Origin: Chiloscyllium plagiosum
Lineage: Eukaryota
Direction: 5' to 3'
NCBI RefSeq assembly: GCF_004010195.1
Contig: NC_057749.1
Location: forward strand, 16,246,524-16,310,523
DNA: 64,000 nucleotides
How positions within the stretch are numbered: position 1 is the first letter of the stretch; each line of letters opens with the position of its first letter. The translations under genes were made by a program, and so were the position numbers. This document shows, piece after piece, positions 7,049-35,090 of the stretch. The notes under the pieces are model-generated. The model was not told where the DNA came from. It searched no databases and saw only the letters and a list, made by a program, of their open reading frames with translations.

Positions 7049-7216
7049 CCGCACAGCTTCCAGTATGACAGCTTTCTGAGTCGCAGTCAGCTGGGACAGG
7101 AACGGGGTGAAACACGGACACGCACTGGCTACAACGGAGGCTGAAATATTTCTCAGCACCGAGGGACTGAAGCCAGGCAGAAAATGAGCAAACTGGCAAA
7201 TTATATCCACAGTCAC
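7049..7216 (-). CDS. STRC: Stereocilin exon 13 (VTVDIICQFAHFLPGFSPSVL...ACPCFTPFLSQLTATQKAVILEAVR)
   Basis: ttctag acceptor, CGG|gtagg donor, 168 nt; similar to human LCSLHLLLPGLSP...ACSCLAPELSRLSACQ. Confidence 0.92.
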
Positions 7217-7272
7217 CTAGAAATATACAAGAAGCAGTTCTTGTGAAATAATGACACATATGTTATAACACA

Positions 7273-7500
7273 AGGTTTGTGAAGGTTTGTAGCTCAGGTT
7301 GAGGTTTAGGGTGTAGGTTTGCTCGCTGAGCTGTAGGTTTGATATCCAGACGTTTCATTACTTGGCTCGGTAACATCATCAGCGGCGACCTCCAAGTGAA
7401 GCGAAGCTGGTGTCTCCTGTTTTCTATCTATTTAGATATAAATAGAAAGCAGGAGACAACAGCTTCACTTCACTTGGAGGTTGCCACTGATTATGTTATA
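7273..7500. mobile_element. Third fold-back, probably Penelope-derived family (related copy at about 48880-49020)
   Basis: GGTTTGCTCGCTGAGCTG head; CCTCCAAGTGAAG / CTTCACTTGGAGG inverted arms. Confidence 0.65.
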
Positions 7501-7874
7501 AGTGTAAAGCTAAAATACATTATCCATCATTGCACATTGGTCATATTTTGAGAGGATCTCTTCATATAAATTCTTTCTATTTTTATTGTGGGAATTCCAT
7601 GTAAACTATGTATTTACAACTTGCATTCTGTGTTGGCACTGACAGAACCTCTGAGAACTCCTTTTCCACAACTGTTGTTAGTTTGCCTACTTAACCAGAA
7701 ATAACAAAATCAACACATAACCAATTTATTAATCAGACAAACTGAACAGCCATAATTTCATTACCCTGGAAGTGTTTGATAGGGGACAGAGAGAATTTTA
7801 CTCTGTATCTAACTCTGTGCTGTCCCTGTCCTGAGAGTGATGGAATTTGATGGAAAGTTGAAACGGATACTTAC

Positions 7875-7913
7875 ATTAATATTCTGGATAATCTCAGTCA
7901 CAAGTTGATGAAC
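7875..7913 (-). CDS. STRC: Stereocilin exon 12, 39 nt (VHQLVTEIIQNIN)
   Basis: tttaaag acceptor, AAT|gtaagt donor, phase 0-0; same size and position as the recalled 13-codon human exon, but little residue similarity. Confidence 0.75.
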
Positions 7914-8199
7914 CTTTAAAGGGTTAACAAAAAACATTAATATCTGTGTTACTAACAGTCCATTATACTTCTCATTTCTCAGTTAGCATTTAGCTGTTAA
8001 TCATGTCACATTTTCCTCTGCTCCCCTCTCTCCCCTCCGAAGGAACTGACTGTTACTGGAGATAATTGTACTCTCACTGTAGACCCTTGCTCCACTTGGC
8101 TTCTGTTACTGTAAAGGCTGGATTGTAATTGCTGTAACCCCTTTCACCACTAGAGGAGCTCTACATCTGGGCACACACTGACCTACACAATATCTCATG

Positions 8200-13415: not shown

Positions 13416-13622
13416 GACCAGGAGGGATGTAGGGGCTGGAGGAGGTGACAGAGATAGGGAGGGGGTGAAGGGGCTGGTGGAGGTGACAGAGATAGGGAGG
13501 GGGTGCAGAGGCCAGAGGAGATGACAGAGATAGGAAGGGGGTGGAGGGGCCAGAGGAGGTGACAGAGATAGGGAGGGGGGTGTAGGGGCTGGAGGAGGTT
13601 ATAGAGATAGGGAGGGGTGTGG
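13416..13622 (+). repeat. About 39-bp purine-rich minisatellite (GAGATAGGGAGGGGGTGTAGGGGCTGGAGGAGGTGACA); further units at 13883-13970
   Basis: About 5 directly visible tandem units. Confidence 0.9.
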
Positions 13623-13673
13623 GGTCACTATCAACGAGGGTTTACAGGAAAGTCTAATCCTGGGAACTATTAC

Positions 13674-13789
13674 CTTCTGATGTTGCCCGCGGTCAGGTTC
13701 CAACTAGAGTTCAGGAGAGTGCGGATTGAGTACCTTCCGTGAGCTGGGTCCAAGCTGTTGTTTCCAAACCCATCGAGCATTGAAAGGAG
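13674..13789 (-). CDS. STRC: Stereocilin exon 9, copy B (tandem duplicate)
   Basis: Identical to 14022-14137 including both splice sites, offset 348 bp. Confidence 0.8.
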
Positions 13790-14021
13790 CTGCAAATAAT
13801 ACAGAGAGTTATTCCTGTACACTGAAACCCTCACTCACGCTCTCTTCCCCTCCTCCTCCCGGAGATGCTAATGTCAACTGCTGAGGAGGTGTATGGGCCA
13901 GAGGAGGTGACAGAGATAGGAAGGGGGGTGTAGGGGCTGGAGGAGGTTATAGAGATAGGGAGGGGTGTGGGGTCACTATCAACGAGGGTTTACAGGAAAG
14001 TCTAATCCTGGGAACTATTAC

Positions 14022-14137
14022 CTTCTGATGTTGCCCGCGGTCAGGTTCCAACTAGAGTTCAGGAGAGTGCGGATTGAGTACCTTCCGTGAGCTGGGTCCA
14101 AGCTGTTGTTTCCAAACCCATCGAGCATTGAAAGGAG
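14022..14137 (-). CDS. STRC: Stereocilin exon 9, copy A (LLSMLDGFGNNSLDPAHGRYSIRTLLNSSWNLTAGNIRR)
   Basis: tttgcag acceptor, AG|gtaata donor, 116 nt, phase 0-2; identical to copy B. Confidence 0.85.
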
Positions 14138-14676
14138 CTGCAAATAATACAGAGAGTTATTCCTGTACACTGAAACCCTCACTCACGCTCTCTTCCCCTC
14201 CTCCTCCCGGAGATGCTAATGTCAACTGCTTCAGCCAGACGGTTCGAAAATGTGAACTCAGTGAGATTATGCTGACCAGCTCATCAACCGTAGCAGGCAT
14301 CACATCTGCCTCCAATATCCACAGAGACTCTGTTTCCGGCTGTGAACCAGGGGCAATGTTTAGCTCCCATCTGGGTAAACCCCTTCCCCCAACTCCTGTA
14401 TGCGGGAGTTTGGGGTTGAAGGTCAAATAACCTGATAATTCTTGTCTCCTCTTGAAGGAAGGCCATGCACTGAAGGAAAGGGCAGGGGGGGTGGTGCAAA
14501 GGAGCGGAGTCCTCCCCAACCCTCAGGAAGCCGGGTGGAGGTGGGTCAGTCAGCACCTGAAGGAAGAGGATCGGGGTGAAACACAGGGGAGCCTCCCCTT
14601 CGGCCCCACCATAGATACCCTCTCACCAGCACCCCCCCACTCCCCGCTCCCACCACCGCCTCTTGGTGGTGCTAAC

Positions 14677-14863: not shown

Positions 14864-16483
14864 CTGCGAGATACGAAGCAATGGTCAGCATGGGGTGGGG
14901 GTGGGGGGGGGGCACCACGCGCCAACCACAATAAACCCCCCTCCCCACCTCCCACCCCAAAGATCCACTTCACACCTAATCCCATTCCCCTCTTGTTGGG
15001 ATAGCTTCCCAGGGGATCCATCCTAACTGATTCAGGGAGCCGTTCTCACTCGGCCCCCCGAATCACCCAATCTCCCACTGCAGGAGCTGCTGGATACCAG
15101 TCCGGAGCACACACACACAGCAATCGATCTTGGCATAGGAGCGTCTGATGCCCAGTGTTTGCAAGCTGGTGTGATTGGGGTGGTTTACTGTCTCCTCTAG
15201 TGACTGGGACAAAGGGCATAATTGGTCTAATGTGATGGAGGAAATGCACTCAGTGGACGAACGGGAAAGGGCCCATGTCTTAAGCAAGGTCTTGCTTATT
15301 GTATGGTCACTGCCCAGCATGCTGGAGATGTGTGGTCATCTGGGTGAGGGGTTCTAGTGCCCAGCTGCCAACTCAGTCGGAGGGAGGGGGAGGGGGAAGC
15401 GGTGGGAAGGATTCTTAAGGGGCTTGACAGGGTCAATGCTGAGAGGATGATTCCTGCATGGGAGAGTTTAGGAACAGAAGGTACAGTCTCAGAAGAAAAG
15501 GATGGCAATTTAAGACTGAGATGAGGAGGAATTTTGTCTCTCAGAAGGTTGTGTGTGTTTGGAACTCCTTACCACAGAGAGAGCTGTGGGGGCAGAGTCA
15601 TTGTGTGTATTTAAAGCTGAGATAGAGAGATTCTTGATCAGTCAGGGAAATCAAAGGTTACAGGGAGAGGGCAGGAAAGTGGATGTTAGGAATGTCAGAT
15701 CAGCCAGGATCCCATTACTCAAGGGGCCGAATGGCCTCCTCCTGTCCCTAATGCTGATGGTCTTAATCCTAGTAAGCTTACTCAGCAAACCATGTGACCC
15801 TCTAGCCGTAGGGTAGGGGACTCAAGCCCTAAAATGGTTGCCACTGTTGCCCAGGTTATCGGGGGGTAAGAGGGAGGCAATGTGGATTTGAGGATACAAT
15901 CCAATGACCTTAATGAATGGTGCAGCAGGCCTGTCGGAGGGAATGGCTTTCTCCAGCTCTTTGTTCAGATGTAAGCCTGACTGACACTCCTGTCCTGTGT
16001 TTGGGTGGGAATTCCTCATTGATAACCCCCTACTCCCAGCGAAGGTCACAGCCAAAGCTGGACAGAGGTGGGGACAGAGAGTTCATTTCCCGCTCACTCT
16101 CCCAGACTCTGACTGGACTGCAGCAGACCCCCAGGCCCTGACAGAGACTGTGGCTTGGCTCATTGCTCAGGGCACCATATCCAGCAAGAATGGCAAATTT
16201 TCATTTCCATAACACCTCTTCCAACACCAGGATATTCAAACAGCTTCAGAAATGCTTTTCTGCAATGGACTGTCTGTTTGTAAAGTAAGAAACACAGCAG
16301 CATGTATTCCTGACAGCGAGGAGATCAGGAGCTGGTGACGCTAAACGATGGATTCATTTGGGAGGAACACCTTCTTCCCCCATCCCCGTTAGTTTGAAAT
16401 AGTGTTCACAGGATCATCGACATCAACACAGACAACATCTCAGGTCACAGTTTACATTTCACCCAAAGACCATTCGTTTCAAA

Positions 16484-16940
16484 AGTGTGGCACTCCCTCA
16501 GTACTGACCCTCCAATAGTGCAGCACTCCCTCAGCACTGACCCTCCGACAGTGTGGCATTCCCTCAGCACTATCTATCCAACAGTGCAATGCTCCCTCAG
16601 CACTGACTATCCAACAGTGCAGCACTCTCTCAGCGCTGACCCTCTGACAGTGCAGCACTCCCTCAGCACTGACTATCCGACAGTGTGGCACTCCCTCAGC
16701 ACTGACCCTCCAACAGTGTGGCATTCCCTCAGCACTATCTATCCGACAGTGTGGCACTCCCTCAGCACTGACCCTCTGATAGTGCAGCACTCCCTCAGCA
16801 CTGACCCTCCGACAGTGTGGCACTCCCTCAGCATTGACCCTCTGACAGTGTGGTACTCCCTCAGCACTGACCCTCTGACAGTGTGGCACTCCCTCAGCAC
16901 TAACCCTCTGACAACATGGTGCTCCCTAAGCACTAACAGT
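16484..16940 (+). repeat. 33-bp minisatellite, about 14 copies (CAGTGTGGCACTCCCTCAGCACTGACCCTCCGA)
   Basis: Directly visible; gives the repetitive ORFs 16479-16889 and 16485-16955. Confidence 0.95.
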
Positions 16941-17048
16941 GGGTGGATGTGCTGAATTATGGGTTTCATTTCTAAGTGGGATCTGTACTGATGCTGTGTG
17001 AGTCTGAGAGAGCCCCTCATCGAGCCACAGCTGCCTCTCTGTGATCCC

Positions 17049-17275
17049 GAGCTGAAAATGTGTTGCTGGAAAAGCGCAGCATGTCAGGCAGCATCCAACG
17101 AACAGGAGAATTGACGTTTCGGGCATAGGCCCTTCTTCAGGAAGGGCTTGATAGGAAGGGCTTATACCCGAAATGTCGATTCTCCTGCTCCTTGGATGCT
17201 GCCTGACCTGCTGCGCTTTTCCAGCAACACATTTTCAGCTCTGATCTCCAGCATCTGCAGTCCTCACTTTCTCCT
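17049..17275. mobile_element. Fold-back short element, probably Penelope-derived, with a minimal hammerhead core; family copies at about 6255-6350, 6820-6945, 44940-45112, 51317-51482, 55743-55822, 59943-60135
   Basis: Arms at about 17049-17126 and 17165-17241 are reverse complements (GCTGGAAAAGCGCAGC.../...GCTGCGCTTTTCCAGC). Confidence 0.75.
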
Positions 17276-17395
17276 CTCTGTGACCCCGAGCCAATGAGCA
17301 GCCTATATTCTCAGCAGAAAGGGACAGTAAATGTTGATCAAGTGCAGGAAGCAGGCAGAGTGTGAGGCTTTTATCCTTGTTGCTAATGAACTCAC

Positions 17396-17562
17396 ACGCT
17401 GTCATTCAGAAGGAGTGACTCCGGGAAACCATGAATATCCGACACACTCATGAAAGGAAGGAACTGTGACAGGTCCACAAAGAGGTCAGGGGTCACTCGG
17501 GGAAACTTCTGCAGGAAGGCAGCAGTGAACGTTTCCAGGGCAGGTCGATTGCTCTGAGAAAC
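17396..17562 (-). CDS. STRC: Stereocilin exon 7 (VSQSNRPALETFTAAFLQKFPRVTPDLFVDLSQFLPFMSVSDIHGFPESLLLNDSV)
   Basis: 167 nt, phase 0-2; strong similarity to human [30 protein letters not shown]. Confidence 0.93.
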
Positions 17563-18243
17563 CTGGAGGACAGAAAGATTTAACATTCTTCAAGCCACAT
17601 CCAGAGACGATAATATACAATGCAGTTAAAAACTGCTTCAGTCTAATATTCTATCTTGGGGGCATTATAAAAGTTTCTACACAAGGGAATGGTGCATCAG
17701 CTTGAGGTCCCAATGCTGGCATTGGTCCAGCGGTGATATGAACATACAATCTCGGAGCAGGCCATTCAGCCCCTCAATGCCAGCCCATCCATTTGATAAG
17801 TTCAAGGCCTCAACTTGTGACTGAGATTATCCAGAATATTAATGTAAGTATCTGTTTCAATTTTCCATCAAATTCCATCACTCTCAGGATAGGGACAGCA
17901 CAGAGTTAGATACAGAGTAAAATTCTCTCTGTCCCCTATCTGGGATTGTGGTGGGACCAGTCAAGAGGGCATTGGATGTTATTTAAATAGAAACAAGGTG
18001 CTGGGCTATGGGGAAAGGGCAGGAGATTGGCACCAGGTAATGATGCCCATTCAGAGCCAGTACGGATATTATGGGCCAAATGGCTCTGGCTGCACTATAA
18101 CATGCCTGTGATTCAGAGGCTGGAGGAGGTTATAGAGTGAGGGAGAGACAACACCAGAGGCAGCTGAGATACGGATGAGCTATGTGAAATCAGCGTGTTG
18201 CCAGCCTGGGTACCAGTGTATCAGTGTCCAAAGCTGTGCCCAC

Positions 18244-18354
18244 CTGGAGTTGGCGCCAGGCCCGGTGCATGTGAGAGAGCAGTTTCTTGACACTCTCACT
18301 TTCAGCTGACATCAGAATCTTCTGCAAATTCTCCCGGGGCATCAGCAGGTATTC
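18244..18354 (-). CDS. STRC: Stereocilin exon 6 (EYLLMPRENLQKILMSAESE...WRQLQ)
   Basis: ttcccag acceptor, CAG|gtggg donor, 111 nt; similar to human YLHMPPENLQQLVLSAERE. Confidence 0.88.
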
Positions 18355-19326
18355 CTGGGAATGAGAGAAAATACTCAGAGACAGCATCATTGTCATAGCT
18401 TCATCATTCTCCCTTCAGTCTTCAGTCCTGAACTCGACGCTGCAGGGACTGGAACGGTGCCCGAACACTGCCTGTCCCCAGCTCCCTGTCTCAAGGGTCT
18501 TGGGGGAAACCACATCCTCATCATCCGAGTCAGTCACGTAGACCGGTAAATGCCAACCCAGCGAGTTTGAGAATCGAGGCTGACACAGGGACCTGTGACT
18601 GAGGGAGTGCTGCACAGTTGCAATGCTACTGTCAGCTGAGAGGCTCAATCAAGGCCCTGTGTGCTCACTCAGGTGGAGACCCTGAAGGGACACCCTCCAA
18701 CCAGGGAGGGAGAGCCTACCTTCAATAACCAAGACTCCCCTGAAAGAGGTGACGGTGTTCAAGGAAACTTGCAAAAACTCACGCTGCTGATTTATTCTTA
18801 AACCACGCAGTTTTTCCCAGCTCCTTAAAGGTGAGGTTTGTGACCATCCGACAGGCTGCTGCTGGAGGTGATTTTAATCAGCTAGTGGGGTCTTATGAAA
18901 CAGGCAGATATTCAATACTTCATTGAGCGTTTGAACACCAAGGAGTTCTCATTTAGGTGTGTACAAACAAGCATTCGAAGTTAGGAGTAGACCATTCAGC
19001 CCTTGAGAATGCTCTGTCATTTGATATTATTGAGTCTGATCTGATTGTAGCATGAACTCCACTTTAATGTCTGATATTGTAACCCTGACTCTCTGGTTGG
19101 TCAAGAAGATACCAATATCCGCCCAGAAGCTCCACTGCTGGCCCAGCCTCCACTGCTTTTCTGCAGAACTGCGGTTCCCAGACACTCACCCCTCAGAGAA
19201 AACAATGCTTCTCAACTGTGTCTTAAACTGTACCCCTGTTTCTGAAACAAAACCTGAAATTGCTGGTGAAACTCAGAATTGCAGAATCATCTGTTAAAGA
19301 GTTCTTTAACAAAACAATACTATTGG

Positions 19327-19515
19327 AGATCTGAAAATGCTGGAGAAACTCAGCAGGTCTGGCAGCATCTGCAGAGAGGGAAACACAGCTCCCGTTTCTA
19401 GTCAGATATAATTCTTTGTTGAATGAAGAAGGGTTCACTGGATTAGAAACATTAACTGTTTCTCTCTCCAGAGATGCTGCTAGACCTGTTGAGTTTCTCC
19501 AGCATTTTCAGATCC
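19327..19515. mobile_element. Fourth fold-back family (copies at about 27560-27640 and 43880-44000)
   Basis: GATCTGAAAATGCTGGAGAAACTCA ... TGAGTTTCTCCAGCATTTTCAGATC inverted arms. Confidence 0.7.
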
Positions 19516-19654
19516 CCAACAGAATGATTTCATTGAAGAACTGATTAACAATTGATTCTGCAATTCTAATTTCTGCTGCAAACATTCTCACCTTCAGGTC
19601 AGACTTTAATTTAATAAAGTTCACTCAAAATAATTAATCTCACACTCAATCTGA

Positions 19655-19878
19655 ACTGAGGGGGTGCCACACTGTCAGAGGGTCAGTGCTGAAGGGGTGC
19701 CGCACAGTCAGAGGGTCAGTGCTGAGGGGGTACTGCACTGTTGGAGGGTCAGTGCTGAAGGGGTACTGCACTGTTGGAGGTTCAGTGCTGAGGGGCTGCT
19801 GCACTGTCGGAGGGTCAGCGTTGAGAGAGTGCCACACTGTTGGAGGGGCAAATACTGAGGGAGCACCGCACTGTTGCA
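19655..19878 (-). repeat. Same 33-bp minisatellite in the opposite orientation, about 6-7 copies
   Basis: CTGAGGGGGTGCCACACTGTCAGAGGGTCAGTG units. Confidence 0.92.
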
Positions 19879-20189
19879 GGTTGGTCTTTCAAGTGAAATG
19901 TTAAACTGAGGCCCCATCAGATGAATATAAAAGGTCTCATGACACGAGGTTGAAGAGCAGCAGTGTTCTCCCCCCCCCAGTCCTGGCCAATAATTCTTTC
20001 TGAATCCACAACAGAAAAACAGATGAGCGGAGGGAGCTATTTGGTGACTGGGTGTGGCTCCTCCCTGCCAGCTAAGTCCTCATTACAACAACATCGACAC
20101 TTCTGACGTCAATTTTCTGTAAAAGGCTTTGAAATATCCCAAGATTGCGAAAAGGGATTGTCAAAATGCAAGTTCTTTGTTTCTCTTAC

Positions 20190-20252
20190 CTGAAAAAGAT
20201 CCCTCAGGGCTGGTGAATCCTCCTCATTCTGTAACATGGCCCAGAGAACTGG
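20190..20252 (-). CDS. STRC: Stereocilin exon 5 (PVLWAMLQNEEDSPALRDLFQ)
   Basis: ctgcag acceptor, CAG|gtaag donor, 63 nt, phase 0-0; resembles the recalled human segment LWELLQREKSVWALQILVQ. Confidence 0.88.
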
Positions 20253-23200
20253 CTGCAGGTGGAGGTAAATCAGAACAAGATTGTGTCAGAATTTACCTTT
20301 AATCAGTCATTGCAACTTCTCCCCCTTGATTTTGTTCTTTCAGGGGATACTGATGCATCTCATGGTACTGTTTACGTTCAGGTCATCTTCTGGAACTCCA
20401 TTCTCCAGCCGTGAGACTAGATGGTAAACATGAGCAGACTATTTGGCTGCAGAAGCCTCACTGCCACCACCACACATATCCCAAGAGGGTCCACTGCAAA
20501 GGTCAGATGTGACAAGACTGATTGCACCCCTGCCCTCCCCCATCACCACCACCCCCACACCCCTCACCAGCCCCCCCACCCCGCCTTGGTTGAATTGCAC
20601 AGTCAGATGTAATTGACAAAACTTTAACATTCAGGACAAGAGTTGCAGGCTGACTTACATCCCCCAAACCCTAGTGGGATTCAATGCCTTTAGAAGGAGC
20701 AGGAGTTAGTAACTGTGTATGGGATATTAAAGCAGCGTGCACAGGCGATTAAAGCACTCTCACAGTCACACAATTGCATGGAAATATTTCAAAGGAGGCC
20801 AATATTTAACATTTGACCAACATCATCAAAATAATTTATCTGCTCTTTGTCATATTTCTGTTTGCAGGAACATGCTGTGTCTGAATTGATTCACATTTTT
20901 CCTGCGACAGTGACTACACTTCAACAAGTGGATTGTAAAAATGCTATATAAATGTTAATCTCTCTTCCTTTTTGTGTGCGTTTATAACTCACTCAGGTAA
21001 CACAACAGCAACATCAGTAAATGGGTCACAACTCAGAAAATTATTAATTTCAATTCCATAATCCGTTGAACTAGTCTAAATTCGAACACTTTATTGTATG
21101 AGATTTATCGCACTCTTCTGCAGGTATTGTATGTTCCATGTTCGACAGAGCTGGTCCAATTAGTGAGGTGATACAAGTTGTTAAGATATATCTACTATTC
21201 ATTTATGTACATGTAATTATTCAGTGCATAGACTGAGGCTATTATAGGTCACTGAAATATCACAAATTGCTTCAAGCTTTACCAGTTTGCACTAAATCCT
21301 TCACTTTTTTTTTGAAAATGTGTGGGAAAGATTATTGTTACTGTTGGCATCACCACAAGCTGAATACAGATGTAGAGATAGTCTTTTATTCTGTATTGAC
21401 CCCATTCCTGAGTCTATCCGCAAGTCAGTTTGTGTTCAAGTCAGAACACAATGCAGGACAACGTAAAGCAGCTGTTACAAAGTACAGGAAATGTGTGTAT
21501 GTCAGATCTTTAAAATTATTGTTCCCCATATCAGAGAGTGCTCAGAAGAATGAGTGTTGGTAAGTTGGGGAGCCCATGCATATCCCAATATGCTGCTACG
21601 ACAGATCATAAGGTTATGAGCCTGAATTTCACAGAATCTTACGGTGCAGCAGATTTTGCAGCCCATTGTGGCTGCATCAGTGTTTTGTTAGTTAGATCCA
21701 ATTGCTTCTGTTTCCTCTGCTCTTGCCTCTGTGGCATATCTGCCAGGCTTAGTATTTATAGGGACATAGGAACAGGGGGAAGATGGCAGCTCTTGTGGCA
21801 CGGTGGTAGTTCCCTTACCTCTGGACTAGAGATCCAAGTTCAAGTCCCATCTGCTCTAGAGGTGTATAATAACATCTTCGAGCAGTTGATTAGAAAATAT
21901 CTAGGAACAGGCCACTCTGTCTGTCGAGTCTGCCCTGCTGTTCAATACAATCACGGCTGATTGAACACTTTAATGCCTGTTACCCACCCAACCCCAAAAT
22001 CATATATGTCATTGGTAATCAGAAATGTATCAATCTCTACCTTAAACATAAGGACTGAGCTTCCACAGCCCTGTGGGGTCAAGAATTCCAAAGGTTCACA
22101 ACCCTCCAGGAAAAACAAGAATTCTCCTCATCTCAGACATTATCCAATTCCTTTCGAAAGTTACGGTTGAATTTGCTTCTATGACCTTTGCAGATGGTGG
22201 ATTCCAGATCACAATAATTCAATTTTGTCAATTATGTCAAATCTGTATCCTTTGGTTATGAACCCTCTTGCTAGAGAAAATATTATTTCAGATAACAGCA
22301 GGTAAAAAGGGGGAAAACCCATACAGTCTCCTCCTGCTTCCAGTTTGTATGCTCTTGTAATATTAAACAGCTCCTTAACCTTTTCTGCTGTGAACAATCC
22401 CAGCTTCCCAGGTCTGCTGAAGGACAGACGTCATTGGTACAATCTGGGAAATCTCCTCTGCATTGTCCTTTTGAGAGCCTGGTGCTCAGGACTGACTCAA
22501 CATTCCTACTACATGCATCCCAACCATCTCTCAGAATGTAACTATCAGCCAATAAGACCTTAAATTAAAAACATTGACCCTGTCAAGCCTCCACCCTCAG
22601 AATCCTGTATGTTTCAGTGGATTCACCCTTATTTCTTCTAGACTCTAATGAATAAAGGCCTAATCTGAACAGCTATTTCCAAAACATCAGCTCTTTCAAC
22701 ACAAGAATCAGCCTAGTTAATCTCTTTTGAACAGCCTTCAATGTCCACACATCCTTTCTTAAATATAGGGGACCAGAACTGTACCTAATCCTTCACGTGT
22801 GGTCCCAACACCCTGCACTGTTGTAATAAGAATTCCTTATTTTTAAACTCCAAGCTCCTAGCATTAAAGGCCAAAATGCCATTCTTAATTTCTTGCTATT
22901 TTCCATGTTTCATGCACGGGGACTGCCACGCTGCGCAAATTTTGAGTCTCTCTCCCATTTAAACAAAAGCTTATCTTTTGATTCGTCCTGCTAAAGTGCA
23001 TGACCTCACAGTTTACTAAATGGAACTCATCCTCCAAGTCTTTGACCACTCCTTTAATCCTACCCCTATCTACAACCCTGCTTGTCCAATCCACCTGTCC
23101 CTCGGGAACAGCTCTCTCTCACCTGTACCGGCCCCGATAAGCCATGAATTGAAACCCATTTCTCCCACACCAATATCTGAGCAGTAAGTGAATTGTGACA

Positions 23201-23427
23201 AGTTGAATTTTGTTTGTGACTGCTGCTATTTGTGAGGATAACTGTTCTGTAATTTTTTAAAACAAATTTCATAAATAATGTATTTGCGACAGAAGGATGT
23301 TATCATTGACGAAGGACTTCAGTGCTGTGGAGAGATTAGAGGAGCTGGGATGATTCTCCTTAGAGCAAGGAAGTGTAAGGGAAAGCCCCTTTGAGGTAGT
23401 GCTCACATTGATATCCCTATTGCTTAC

Positions 23428-25282
23428 ACTGAAGCAGTTGAGAAGGTCATTTTTAAGGGCTCTGTCAGTCTCTTCCTTTAAGTAGCTGTCAATAGTCTGT
23501 AAAATACTGATGGAAGCATTGGGATTGAAGGCTTCCCAGAAAGAATCATTGTCCATTAAGCTGGAGAGAAGAATGGCCTCACTCAAAACCTCTTGTACTT
23601 CCTTCTCCCTATGATTGAGGCTGGATAAGTCCAGGATGTAGTTGAAGACTTGGAGAATATAGTTGGCGTTGGAAATCCAGCTGAAGGCCTGGTCATCACA
23701 CTGGTTGAGACGATCGAGGAGGTCAGTCAGGAAAGCGGTTGGATTTTGACACAGCTGAGTTGTGTTGAGGTTCAAGGCTATTGGAAGTTTGTCGAGCCAG
23801 TGGCCTACAAAACACTCCTCATCTTGTGGTTCTTTGGAGGCCACACAGTAATTTAAGACCCAAGGGTGCAGCTGTGACATTATGTCATAAAGAGTGGCAT
23901 TCTGGCAAATTATTTGCTTTAAACCTTCGCTGTCCTGGGCTTTACAACTTGCTAGAAGGCTGCCATTGATCAACATCTCGTATGACCATGTCTTGTAATC
24001 ACATTTTAATGGAAGGCTTTCAACAGGTAAAGAATTCAGTGCTCTCTTCAATTCATCAAAAAGGTTGCAAAAACGAATCAACCAGGACACGGTCCACTCA
24101 ACTTTCAAAGATGTTCCATTGGCACAGATATCGTGGATGAGAGTTGTTCCCCTCATTAAGGTGCACTCCTGCAAATCGATGATGGTGGCATTTGGAACTT
24201 TAAACCCTCGGTGACACTTGCTGGTTGAAAGCTGCAGGCCCTCTAAGCTCCTGATGGTGTGCGCACAGACGAGGCTGCTCCAGGCACCAGCTCCTGACAG
24301 ATCCTTCAGGAACGTCCTGTTGAAGCAGAGCTCCCTGATATACTCAACACCCAGGTGAAGGATGCACTCCTGAATCAAAGTCTTTTCTATACTGGAATTC
24401 TGAAATATATAGTGACATTCGCTATTGACAATGTTTATTTCTTCAGAGTTAGTAGTGAGCCATGAACAGACTGGGATAATCCAGGGCTCAACCACACTGA
24501 GATTCTTCAAGGATCTCATTTGGGAGCAAAGGTAGTTGACAAAATCAGTCCCACTCTGATCACCCATGATTAAAGAGATGGCTTCCATTTTCAGTCCATT
24601 TCGCTGTCTGCAAAGATTCATGATCAGCCTCTTGTCACCAACCACACTGGTCAGGAAAGTGTCATTCGAACAAAGTCTGTGGATATAATCTGCACCTTTG
24701 GCCAGCAGACAGGCCTGGATCTCCTCTGAGCTTACACTCACTCTGGTTGACAATCTGCCGCAATTCCTGGCAGAGGTGCCATGTTTCCTTGACCCGCTCT
24801 GCAGCCTGGCACAGAGCTGGTTGAAGTCTTGCCGGCTCAACAGGGAGACGTTGCTGCAGACAGTGGAGTTGAACTCCGAGGTGTAAAACTGGCGGCAGAC
24901 CTGAACCCAGTAAAGATCCTCCTGAACTGCGGAGAAGTACCAGGCAGCATCTGAGCAGGCAGCCCGGAGGTCTGGTGGGGCCTGGCTTACGGCTGTGGTC
25001 TGGTTGAAGAGGTTGCAGTAGAGATAGATGGTGAAGTTGGAGATCCCTGGGAGTCTGGGCATGGAGTCGTTACAGGCAGCCTCCAAAGTTCCGGTGTAAG
25101 GAAAGTCATGGTCACCTTTAACAGTTTCCCCAGATCGTTTGGACACTGTATGGGAATTTCTTCGCATGTCTCGGACTTTGTCACTCAGGCGGCTACAGGC
25201 TAAAAAAGGTGTCTCGGTCAAAACTCCTTGAGAGCTGAATCCCAGTATCGGAATATTCCAGGAGATGTTATTTCTGATCCCC
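23428..25282 (-). CDS. STRC: Stereocilin exon 4 (1855 nt, Cys-rich, many N-x-S/T sites)
   Basis: Core of the 679-aa ORF 23269-25308; starts (W)GIRNNISWN after tgcag, ends LLNCFS|gtaagc. Confidence 0.92.
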
Positions 25283-25384
25283 CTGCATTTGAAACAAAAC
25301 AAAAACAAGCTAGGATCTAGGTCCTAACACTCCAAGAGGAACACACTGGGGCATTTTTACAATGGGTTCATCTATGGGTCAGCA

Positions 25385-25875
25385 TCAGGTCACCCTGTTA
25401 CAGGAAGAATGTTATTAAGCTGGAGAGGGTTCAGAAGAGATTTACCAGGATGTTGCCAATTTGAAAGGTTTGAGTTATAAAGAAAGGCTGGATTGGCTTG
25501 GACTTTTTTCACTGGAGCGTAAGAGGTCGAGAGGTGACCTTATCGAAGTTTATTAAATAGTGAGGGGTATGAATAGGGTTAATGGTAGTTGTCTGTTCCC
25601 TAGGACGGGGGAATTTCTGGACAATGGGACTAATTTTTAAGCTGAGAGGAGAAATATTTTAAAAAGACATGAGGGGCAAACGTTTTACACAGAGGGTGGT
25701 TCCCATGTGAAATTAACTTCCTGAGGAAGTGGTGGATGTGGGCACAACTATGTTTAAAAGATACAGGAAAGGTTTGGAGGCGTATGAGCCAGGAGCAGGC
25801 AGGTGGGGTTAGTTTAGTTTGGGGTTATGTTTGGTATGGATTGGTTGGGTTTGCTTCTACACTGTATGACTCTAT
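25385..25875 (+). mobile_element. CR1 LINE 3' end (similar 3' fragments at about 1780-2290 +, 15410-15770 +, 22560-23070 -, 32040-32830 +)
   Basis: GGAGAGGGTTCAGAAGAGATTTACCAGGATGTTGCC motif and TATGACTCTATGA tail. Confidence 0.8.
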
Positions 25876-26916: not shown

Positions 26917-26941
26917 CATAAAAGAAGCTGTCTTAGATCTC
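26917..26941 (-). CDS. STRC: Stereocilin exon 3, 25-nt micro-exon (GDLRQLLLW)
   Basis: tttacag|GAGATCTAAGACAGCTTCTTTTATG|gtaagg; bridges phase 1 (exon 2) to phase 2 (exon 4) exactly. Confidence 0.88.
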
Positions 26942-34023: not shown

Positions 34024-35090
34024 AAGGTGACTAAGGAGGGTAGATGTGGTGTATATGGATTTTAGTAAGGCGTTTGATAAGGTTCCCCATGGTAGGCTAC
34101 TGCAAAAAATACGGAGATATGGCATTGAGGGTGAGTTGGAGGTTTGGATTAGGAATTGGCTGGATGGAAGAAGACAGAGGGTAGTAGTTGATGGCAAAGT
34201 TTCTTCATGGAGTGCCGTCACTAGCGGTGTTCCGCAAGGATCTGTTTTGGGACCATTGCTGTTTGACATTTTTATAAATGACCTGGAAGAGGGGCTAGAA
34301 GGTTGGGTGAGTAGGTTTGCGGATGATACGAAAGTCGGTGGAGTTGTTGACAGTGAGGAAGGATGTGTCAGGTTACAGCAGGATATAGATAAGTTGCAGA
34401 GCTGGGCAGAAAGGTGGCAAATGGAGTTCAATGTAGGCAAGTGTGAGGTGATTCACTTTGGTAAGAGTAACAAAAAGATGGGGTACTGGGCTAATGGTCG
34501 GATACTTGGTAGTGTGGATGATCAGAGGGATCTTGGTGTCCATGTACACAGATCTCTGAAAGTTGCCATCCAGGTAAATAATGCGGTGAAGAAGGCATAT
34601 GGCGTAATGGTTTTTCCTTGGTAGAGGAATTGAGTTCCGGAGCCCTGAGGTCATGTTGCAGTTGTATAAGACTCTGGTGCGGCCGTATCTGGAGTATTGT
34701 GTGCAGCTTTGGTCGCCATACTATAGGAAGGATGTGGAGGCACTGGAACGGGTGCAGAGGAGGTTTACCAGGATGTTGCCTGGTATGGTAGGAAGATCGT
34801 ATGAGGAAAGGCTGAGGCACTTGGGACTGTTTTCATTGGAGAAAAGAAGGTTTAGGGGTGATTTGATAGAGGTGTACAAGATGATTAGGGATTTAGATAG
34901 GGTTGACCATGAGAACCTTTTGCCACGTTATGGAGTCATCTATTACGAGGGGGCATATCCTTAAATTAAGGGGTGGTAGGTATAGGACAGATTTTAGGGG
35001 TAGATTCTTTACTCAGCGAGTCGCGAGTTCATGGAATGCCCTGCCAGTAGCAGTGGTGGACTCTCCCTCTTTATGGGCATTTAAACGGGT
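34024..35090 (+). mobile_element. 5'-truncated young CR1 LINE, C-terminal RT region (frameshifted)
   Basis: ORFs 34046-34624 and 34653-34964: YMDFSKAFDKVPH, GVPQGSVLGP, FADDTK, RPYLEYCVQLWSP. Confidence 0.95.

Follow-up and report, generated by a model that had tools for sequence, protein, structure and literature searches.

A recent, species-specific deletion with an inverted templated insertion in intron 6 of Chiloscyllium plagiosum STRC, probably near-neutral for splicing

The window analysed here, a stretch of 64,000 nucleotides from Chiloscyllium plagiosum, carries the stereocilin gene (STRC) on its minus strand, as identified from homologous proteins; the closest of these come from the bamboo-shark family and are 95% identical across exons 11-13. 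In people, recessive hearing loss results from loss of STRC. Exon 3 was placed near 26936, which fixes the exon numbering, and the earlier assignment of exon 12 and intron 6 holds. On the minus strand, exon 6 (18244..18354, 111 nt) ends in phase 0, intron 6 (17563..18243) is 681 nt long, exon 7 (17396..17562) measures 167 nt and exon 13 (7049..7216, 168 nt) starts in phase 0. Intron 6 reaches at least 967 nt, by contig overhang, in one relative of the species (relative B). Exon 12 (7875..7913, minus strand) is a micro-exon of 39 nt in phase 0/0, and its 13 residues lie within the Pfam Stereocilin domain, a placement read off the closest full protein. Exons 7-12 sum to 825 nt with exon 9 counted once, and exons 7-11 to 786 nt; exon 12 alone and exons 7-12 together are both in frame, as the original prediction had claimed.

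Several other features of the locus deserve description in their own right. A 347-bp tandem duplication (13536-13882 and 13884-14230, 98.8% identical) yields two copies of exon 9 (116 nt) with identical splice sites; including both would shift the frame and bring exons 7-12 to 941 nt. This duplicate may be real, or it may be an artefact of haplotypes or of assembly. Intron 7 contains a young palindromic MITE-like element (17039-17275) with copies 92-97% identical in and around STRC, and a LINE reverse-transcriptase fragment lies upstream of the gene at 34031-34964 (RVT_1, E 4e-24). To the left of the window, contig C40 carries two pairs of young direct duplicates, one of 471 bp (99.4%, 48 kb apart, at 105.8 kb and 57.0 kb from the window) and one of 456 bp (98%, 7 kb apart, at 116.8 kb and 109.1 kb).

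By the evidence of protein models, conservation of exon 12 extends from sharks to birds. The 13 residues occur in 10 of 13 cartilaginous-fish models, in a pipefish and, among 34 further bird and reptile models, in 20; of the remainder, seven lack them, six are uninformative and one was removed by the coverage filter. Besides those seven, the residues are missing from three cartilaginous-fish models, one of which also lacks exons 6-10, and from an eagle model. Models with and without the exon occur side by side inside Haliaeetus and inside Apteryx mantelli, which argues against true loss of the exon. The missing residues are likely missed micro-exon annotations, a cause from which true skipping is not separable in such models.

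Intron 6 of this gene harbors a second, inverted version of part of exon 12. Self-BLAST and alignment match 7778-7908 to 17940-17810 in inverted orientation over 131 bp (128/131, 97.7%, E 3e-58), so the original prediction of a 131-bp inverted copy with three mismatches is confirmed. The source segment (7778..7908, minus strand) covers the 3' 34 of the 39 nt of exon 12, the GTAAGT donor and the first 97 nt of intron 12, exactly the extent first described, and it stands intact beside the copy. The copy itself (17810..17940, plus strand) lies within intron 6, where it is antisense to its source in the pre-mRNA. A present-day inversion of exons 7-11 was considered and rejected, as these exons lie in order on one strand. 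When the genome was searched with 17700-18050, the copied segment matched only two places, the source and the copy, and the other 39 of the 41 matches listed belonged to the right-flank repeat. The exon part of the copy had been described as gene-specific sequence. About 17879-17930 of the copy (about 7788-7839 of the source) is a very high-copy repeat with a summed contig depth of 1e5-4e5 in its bin, and only about 69 nt of the segment are therefore gene-specific. This repeat, at the intronic end of the copied segment, is a decayed unit of a tandem-type repeat that reaches an enormous copy number (summed depth 1e5-7e5) in all DNA samples examined.

The setting of the copy differs from what was first proposed. 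Rather than interrupting one decayed repeat, it takes the place of a lost stretch and is flanked by 3' tails of two different LINEs that face opposite ways; a single interrupted repeat was rejected because the flanks belong to different families. On the left, about 17735..17813 (minus strand) is the 3' tail of a reverse-transcriptase-coding LINE (family A), cut at the junction. On the right, about 17941..18117 (plus strand) is the 3' end of a different such LINE (family B), cut on its 5' side. We take both tails to be of the CR1 type. In a 1 Mb sample queried with RVT_1, the two families occur downstream of reverse-transcriptase matches and usually share their strand: the first is near 10 of 86 matches, four of them on the opposite strand, and the second near seven, none opposite. 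At the left junction, the last four nucleotides of the flank are also the start of the copy (17810-17813, TCAA). This microhomology was measured against the orthologous contigs of two relatives, B and C, has a chance probability of about 1.9%, and may extend to 6 nt against the repeat family alignment. Homology at the right junction is about 0-1 nt relative to repeat copies. Neither a target-site duplication nor a poly(A) tract was found at the inverted copy, which sets it apart from class 1 templated sequence insertion polymorphisms (TSIPs) and LINE-mediated insertions. A chimera made by LINE reverse transcription, switching from LINE RNA to STRC RNA, was likewise rejected, because the right-hand LINE predates the insert: related elements match it at 72-78% identity along the whole alignment, and B already has it.

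The segment has roughly the length of a single read and sits in an assembly of 101,977 contigs, near an exon 9 duplicate that may itself be artefactual. These circumstances would suit an assembly artefact, a chimeric fragment of read length. We examined 8 of 24 listed sequencing runs. Presence was scored by contig breaks of the kind that a two-copy segment should cause, and no record spans the insert (contigs enter it by 30 letters, against a bridging rule of 31). Sample S1 gave two contigs, 17280-17839 and 17911-19272, that both enter the insert by 30 letters, and a contig over the segment common to both arms at a depth of 1.54x. Sample S3, from another study, gave a contig at 17306-17839 and a shared-segment depth of 0.95x. 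In sample S2 the contig of the source arm is interrupted at 7879/7908, and the one common to both arms reaches 2.02x, with an S2 depth of only about 6. By contig-break pattern, the copy is thus present in 3/3 further samples of this species from two studies. No insert-free allele appeared in these three samples, whose contigs drop rare variants. Compared with the window, S3 (run X5) shows 7 differences in 515 letters, with 19 further gap letters, over 17306-17839, and is therefore not the assembled animal. Over 18147-18604 the same comparison gives 0 of 458 differences, a sign of patchy, deep haplotype variation in intron 6. Identical junction positions in three samples, one of them distinct from the assembled animal, largely refute the artefact, which we regard as extremely improbable.

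The relatives, by contrast, lack the copy. Relatives B and C are 4.0% and 4.4% diverged from this species in nearby pieces. Their left-flank contigs (B, X13; C, X14) fit to 17813 only and then continue with 417 and 347 unlike letters, respectively, and the right-flank contig of B begins at 17942, preceded by 139 unlike letters. Source-arm contigs run unbroken through 7908 in four of four relative samples (X13, X14, X12 and X16). The copy is absent from all four samples of the two relatives. Its presence in this species, and the other sequence in its place in B and C, indicate that it arose after the split from both. That other sequence also indicates that the copy replaced several hundred bases, the length lost being at least 417 (from B) or 347 (from C).

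The three mismatches between the arms, at 17853, 17861 and 17890 (donor +10, +18 and +47), are T in the copy and C in the source in gene sense, and all are intronic in both arms. They had been read as C>T changes in the copy that create favored A:C sites for ADAR, a reading that does not survive comparison. At 7865/17853 and 7857/17861, the base found in the copy is also that of B, C and S2, so these two changes arose in the source arm, in some haplotypes, and it is the copy that retains the ancestral state. For the third (7828/17890), the high-copy repeat masks the direction of change. S3 shares the difference at 17853, and two of the three mismatches are not in the collapsed contig of S2. 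The stable or conserved A:C mismatches of an ADAR editing-complementary sequence were not found, and selection by ADAR on such pairs was rejected because, by the bases in S2, B and C, the pairs are not a fixed feature.

The same data bear on whether the arms may be kept alike by gene conversion within each haplotype, in which case its 2.3% divergence may understate the age of the copy. At 17855/7863 one base stands in both arms of the window and the other, shared with B, in the collapsed contigs of S1 and S2; moreover, the S2 contig stands at 2.02x, against 1.59x expected with one popped difference. This depth hints that the arms are identical in S2, which plain neutral decay does not predict. 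On the other side, the 1.54x of S1 fits one hidden difference, S3 reaches 0.95x, the depth of S2 is only about 6 and high-copy repeat words could inflate it, and contigs drop variants, such that popped variants and low depth explain the oddity at 17855/7863 equally well. We consider gene conversion improbable here.

We propose that the feature is a young, species-specific deletion with a templated insertion, probably near-neutral for splicing, and give this reading a probability of roughly 0.7. In this reading, a DNA end broke or stalled in STRC intron 6, probably in one germline event, and the 4-nt microhomology let it switch template to exon 12, some 10 kb distant. There, 131 nt of exon 12 and intron 12 would have been copied in inverted orientation before the end rejoined past the lost stretch, leaving several hundred bases of intron 6 replaced. 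The copy is thus a candidate template-switch product, either of FoSTeS/MMBIR or of an end-joining patch. The copy itself, the replaced sequence, the 4-nt microhomology and the missing target-site duplication support its first description as resembling a templated repair insertion. A variant of this origin takes the template to be unspliced STRC RNA, reverse-transcribed or used directly as an RNA patch. Like unspliced RNA, the copy runs across an exon-intron boundary, LINEs that encode reverse transcriptase are abundant (86 matches in the 1 Mb sample), and RNA templates are proposed for class 2 insertions in the available text of PMC5110952. However, only 10 kb separate source and landing site, and the experimental insertions described in that text come from distant sites; the copy has no poly(A) tract or duplication; and germline expression of STRC is only an assumption here. 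We therefore find an RNA template unlikely, and DNA the preferred one.

What the copy does to the transcript is a separate question. The STRC pre-mRNA does carry a near-perfect antisense to exon 12 and its donor, as originally claimed, and the predicted duplex of copy and source amounts to -228.9 kcal/mol (-103.4 for the gene-specific part and -69.0 for the exon plus 9 nt), compared with summed local opening costs predicted at about 75 kcal/mol. Such a stable predicted duplex is shared with inverted-repeat loop-out and splice-site-masking elements. Among 52 non-redundant inverted pairs in the pre-mRNA, this one ranks seventh by energy; it is the only one that touches an exon and the most perfect of those of at least 100 nt. 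Its arms are 9.9 kb and five exons apart, and the exon 12 donor follows the intron 6 acceptor by 9,688 nt. A 33-bp minisatellite occurs in opposite orientations in intron 7 (16448-16937) and intron 5 (19656-19908), 3 kb apart, and its duplex, predicted at about -402 kcal/mol, encloses exons 6-7 (278 nt, out of frame). A G before an acceptor AG is disfavored; AG sites in the antisense arm, inspected by eye, are preceded by G, so that a cryptic acceptor there seems unlikely. No RNA record was listed for 17300-25400. In the single-cell poly(A) run X22, of which about 6% was read, 0 reads fell on 7100-8000, which is not evidence of silence.

The strongest functional alternative is that the copy acts as a built-in splice-switching antisense, pairing with exon 12 and its donor in transcripts that retain intron 6. 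It would then lower the inclusion of exon 12 (13 residues, in frame), loop out 825 nt or release a circle of exons 7-11 of 786 nt. Beyond the duplex energy, the exon 12 donor pairs with U1 more weakly (-7.3) than the donors of exons 5, 6, 10, 11 and 13 (-10.3 to -12.2), scored with the U1 motif. Skipping of exon 12 and skipping of exons 7-12 both keep the frame. In primates, inverted Alu duplexes promote exon skipping, according to the available text of PMC13019944, where 13.2% of the Alu duplexes captured extend across at least two exons. The same text also reports that captured duplexes become rarer with more intervening exons, which weighs against arms 9.9 kb and five exons apart, as do the deep conservation of exon 12 and the stronger, closer minisatellite duplex that is predicted to surround intron 6. 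Timing leaves room for pairing: at the roughly 1.25 kb/min given in the available text of the nano-COP preprint (bioRxiv 10.1101/611020), a human and fly rather than shark rate, 9.7 kb takes about 8 min to transcribe, within the intron half-lives of 2-14 min given there. The same source indicates that, for most human introns, splicing comes once transcription has advanced about 4 kb further and that, of two neighboring introns, the one already spliced tends to be the shorter; all these kinetic and duplex-capture figures describe human and fly cells, not sharks. We hypothesize that the short intron 6 may be removed or locally folded before exon 12 is made and that U1 may reach the new donor before the antisense arm does. 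With the arm lost early and U1 arriving first, pairing with exon 12 would be too infrequent to matter. Because the 13-residue exon is conserved, strong skipping would likely be costly, yet the sampled individuals show no insert-free allele. The copy is probably a near-harmless scar. The antisense reading remains doubtful on these grounds, and a measurable effect of the copy on splicing is correspondingly a minority expectation. A bolder version, in which a single repair accident created a micro-exon antisense and with it a species-specific isoform in hair cells without the 13 residues or without exons 7-12, spread through the species with its arms matched by gene conversion, seems to us very unlikely.

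As a scar, the copy is of minor consequence: it marks the species and offers a clean, datable instance of deletion with a local inverted templated insertion. If splicing were altered, it would represent natural, non-transposon antisense exon skipping in a hearing gene, and B and C, the relatives without the insert, would serve as natural controls for testing whether pairing with a perfect antisense arm 10 kb upstream can be faster than splicing. A survey of 1,045,436 bases in four blocks, for inverted pairs of at least 100 bp and at least 90% identity within 20 kb, returned 20 pairs including that in STRC, only two of them low-copy. The other low-copy one is a 326-bp pair (C20:30049612-30049937 and 30050312-30050635, 94%, 375 bp apart), which likewise has two copies in the whole genome. 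Extrapolation gives some 3,400 events genome-wide, 38-63 of them covering a splice site, an order-of-magnitude figure that rests on this one other event and on assumed exon counts. Among the titles and abstract openings listed by literature searches that covered few subscription papers, none dealt with the locus or with skipping of STRC exon 12.

The feature is real and recent and belongs to a known kind, and its origin is well supported. With class 2 TSIPs, as described in the available text of PMC5110952, it shares the lack of a target-site duplication and of poly(A), a deletion and junction microhomology, and its 131 bp fall within the 73-414 bp reported there. It departs from them in that its source lies 9.9 kb away in the same gene rather than at a distant site and its deletion runs to hundreds of bases. 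As to polymorphism within the species, 3/3 samples carry the insert and no insert-free branch appears, in contigs that drop rare alleles. The inverted Alu loop-out (PMC13019944) and the TBXT change behind tail loss (PMC10901737), in the available texts, likewise involve a new insertion that creates a long pre-mRNA duplex around coding exons, but in STRC one arm is the exon and donor itself, and the arms are 9.9 kb and five exons apart. The closest likeness is to loss with nearby inverted duplication, the local two-jump: a lost stretch at the landing site, an inverted copy nearby, an intact source and two junctions on one chromosome are all found here, with short microhomology at the left junction and about 0-1 nt, against repeat copies, at the right. 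While that known system is somatic, the STRC copy is germline and shared by the sampled individuals; it is also very small, at 131 bp, and its template spans an exon together with its donor.
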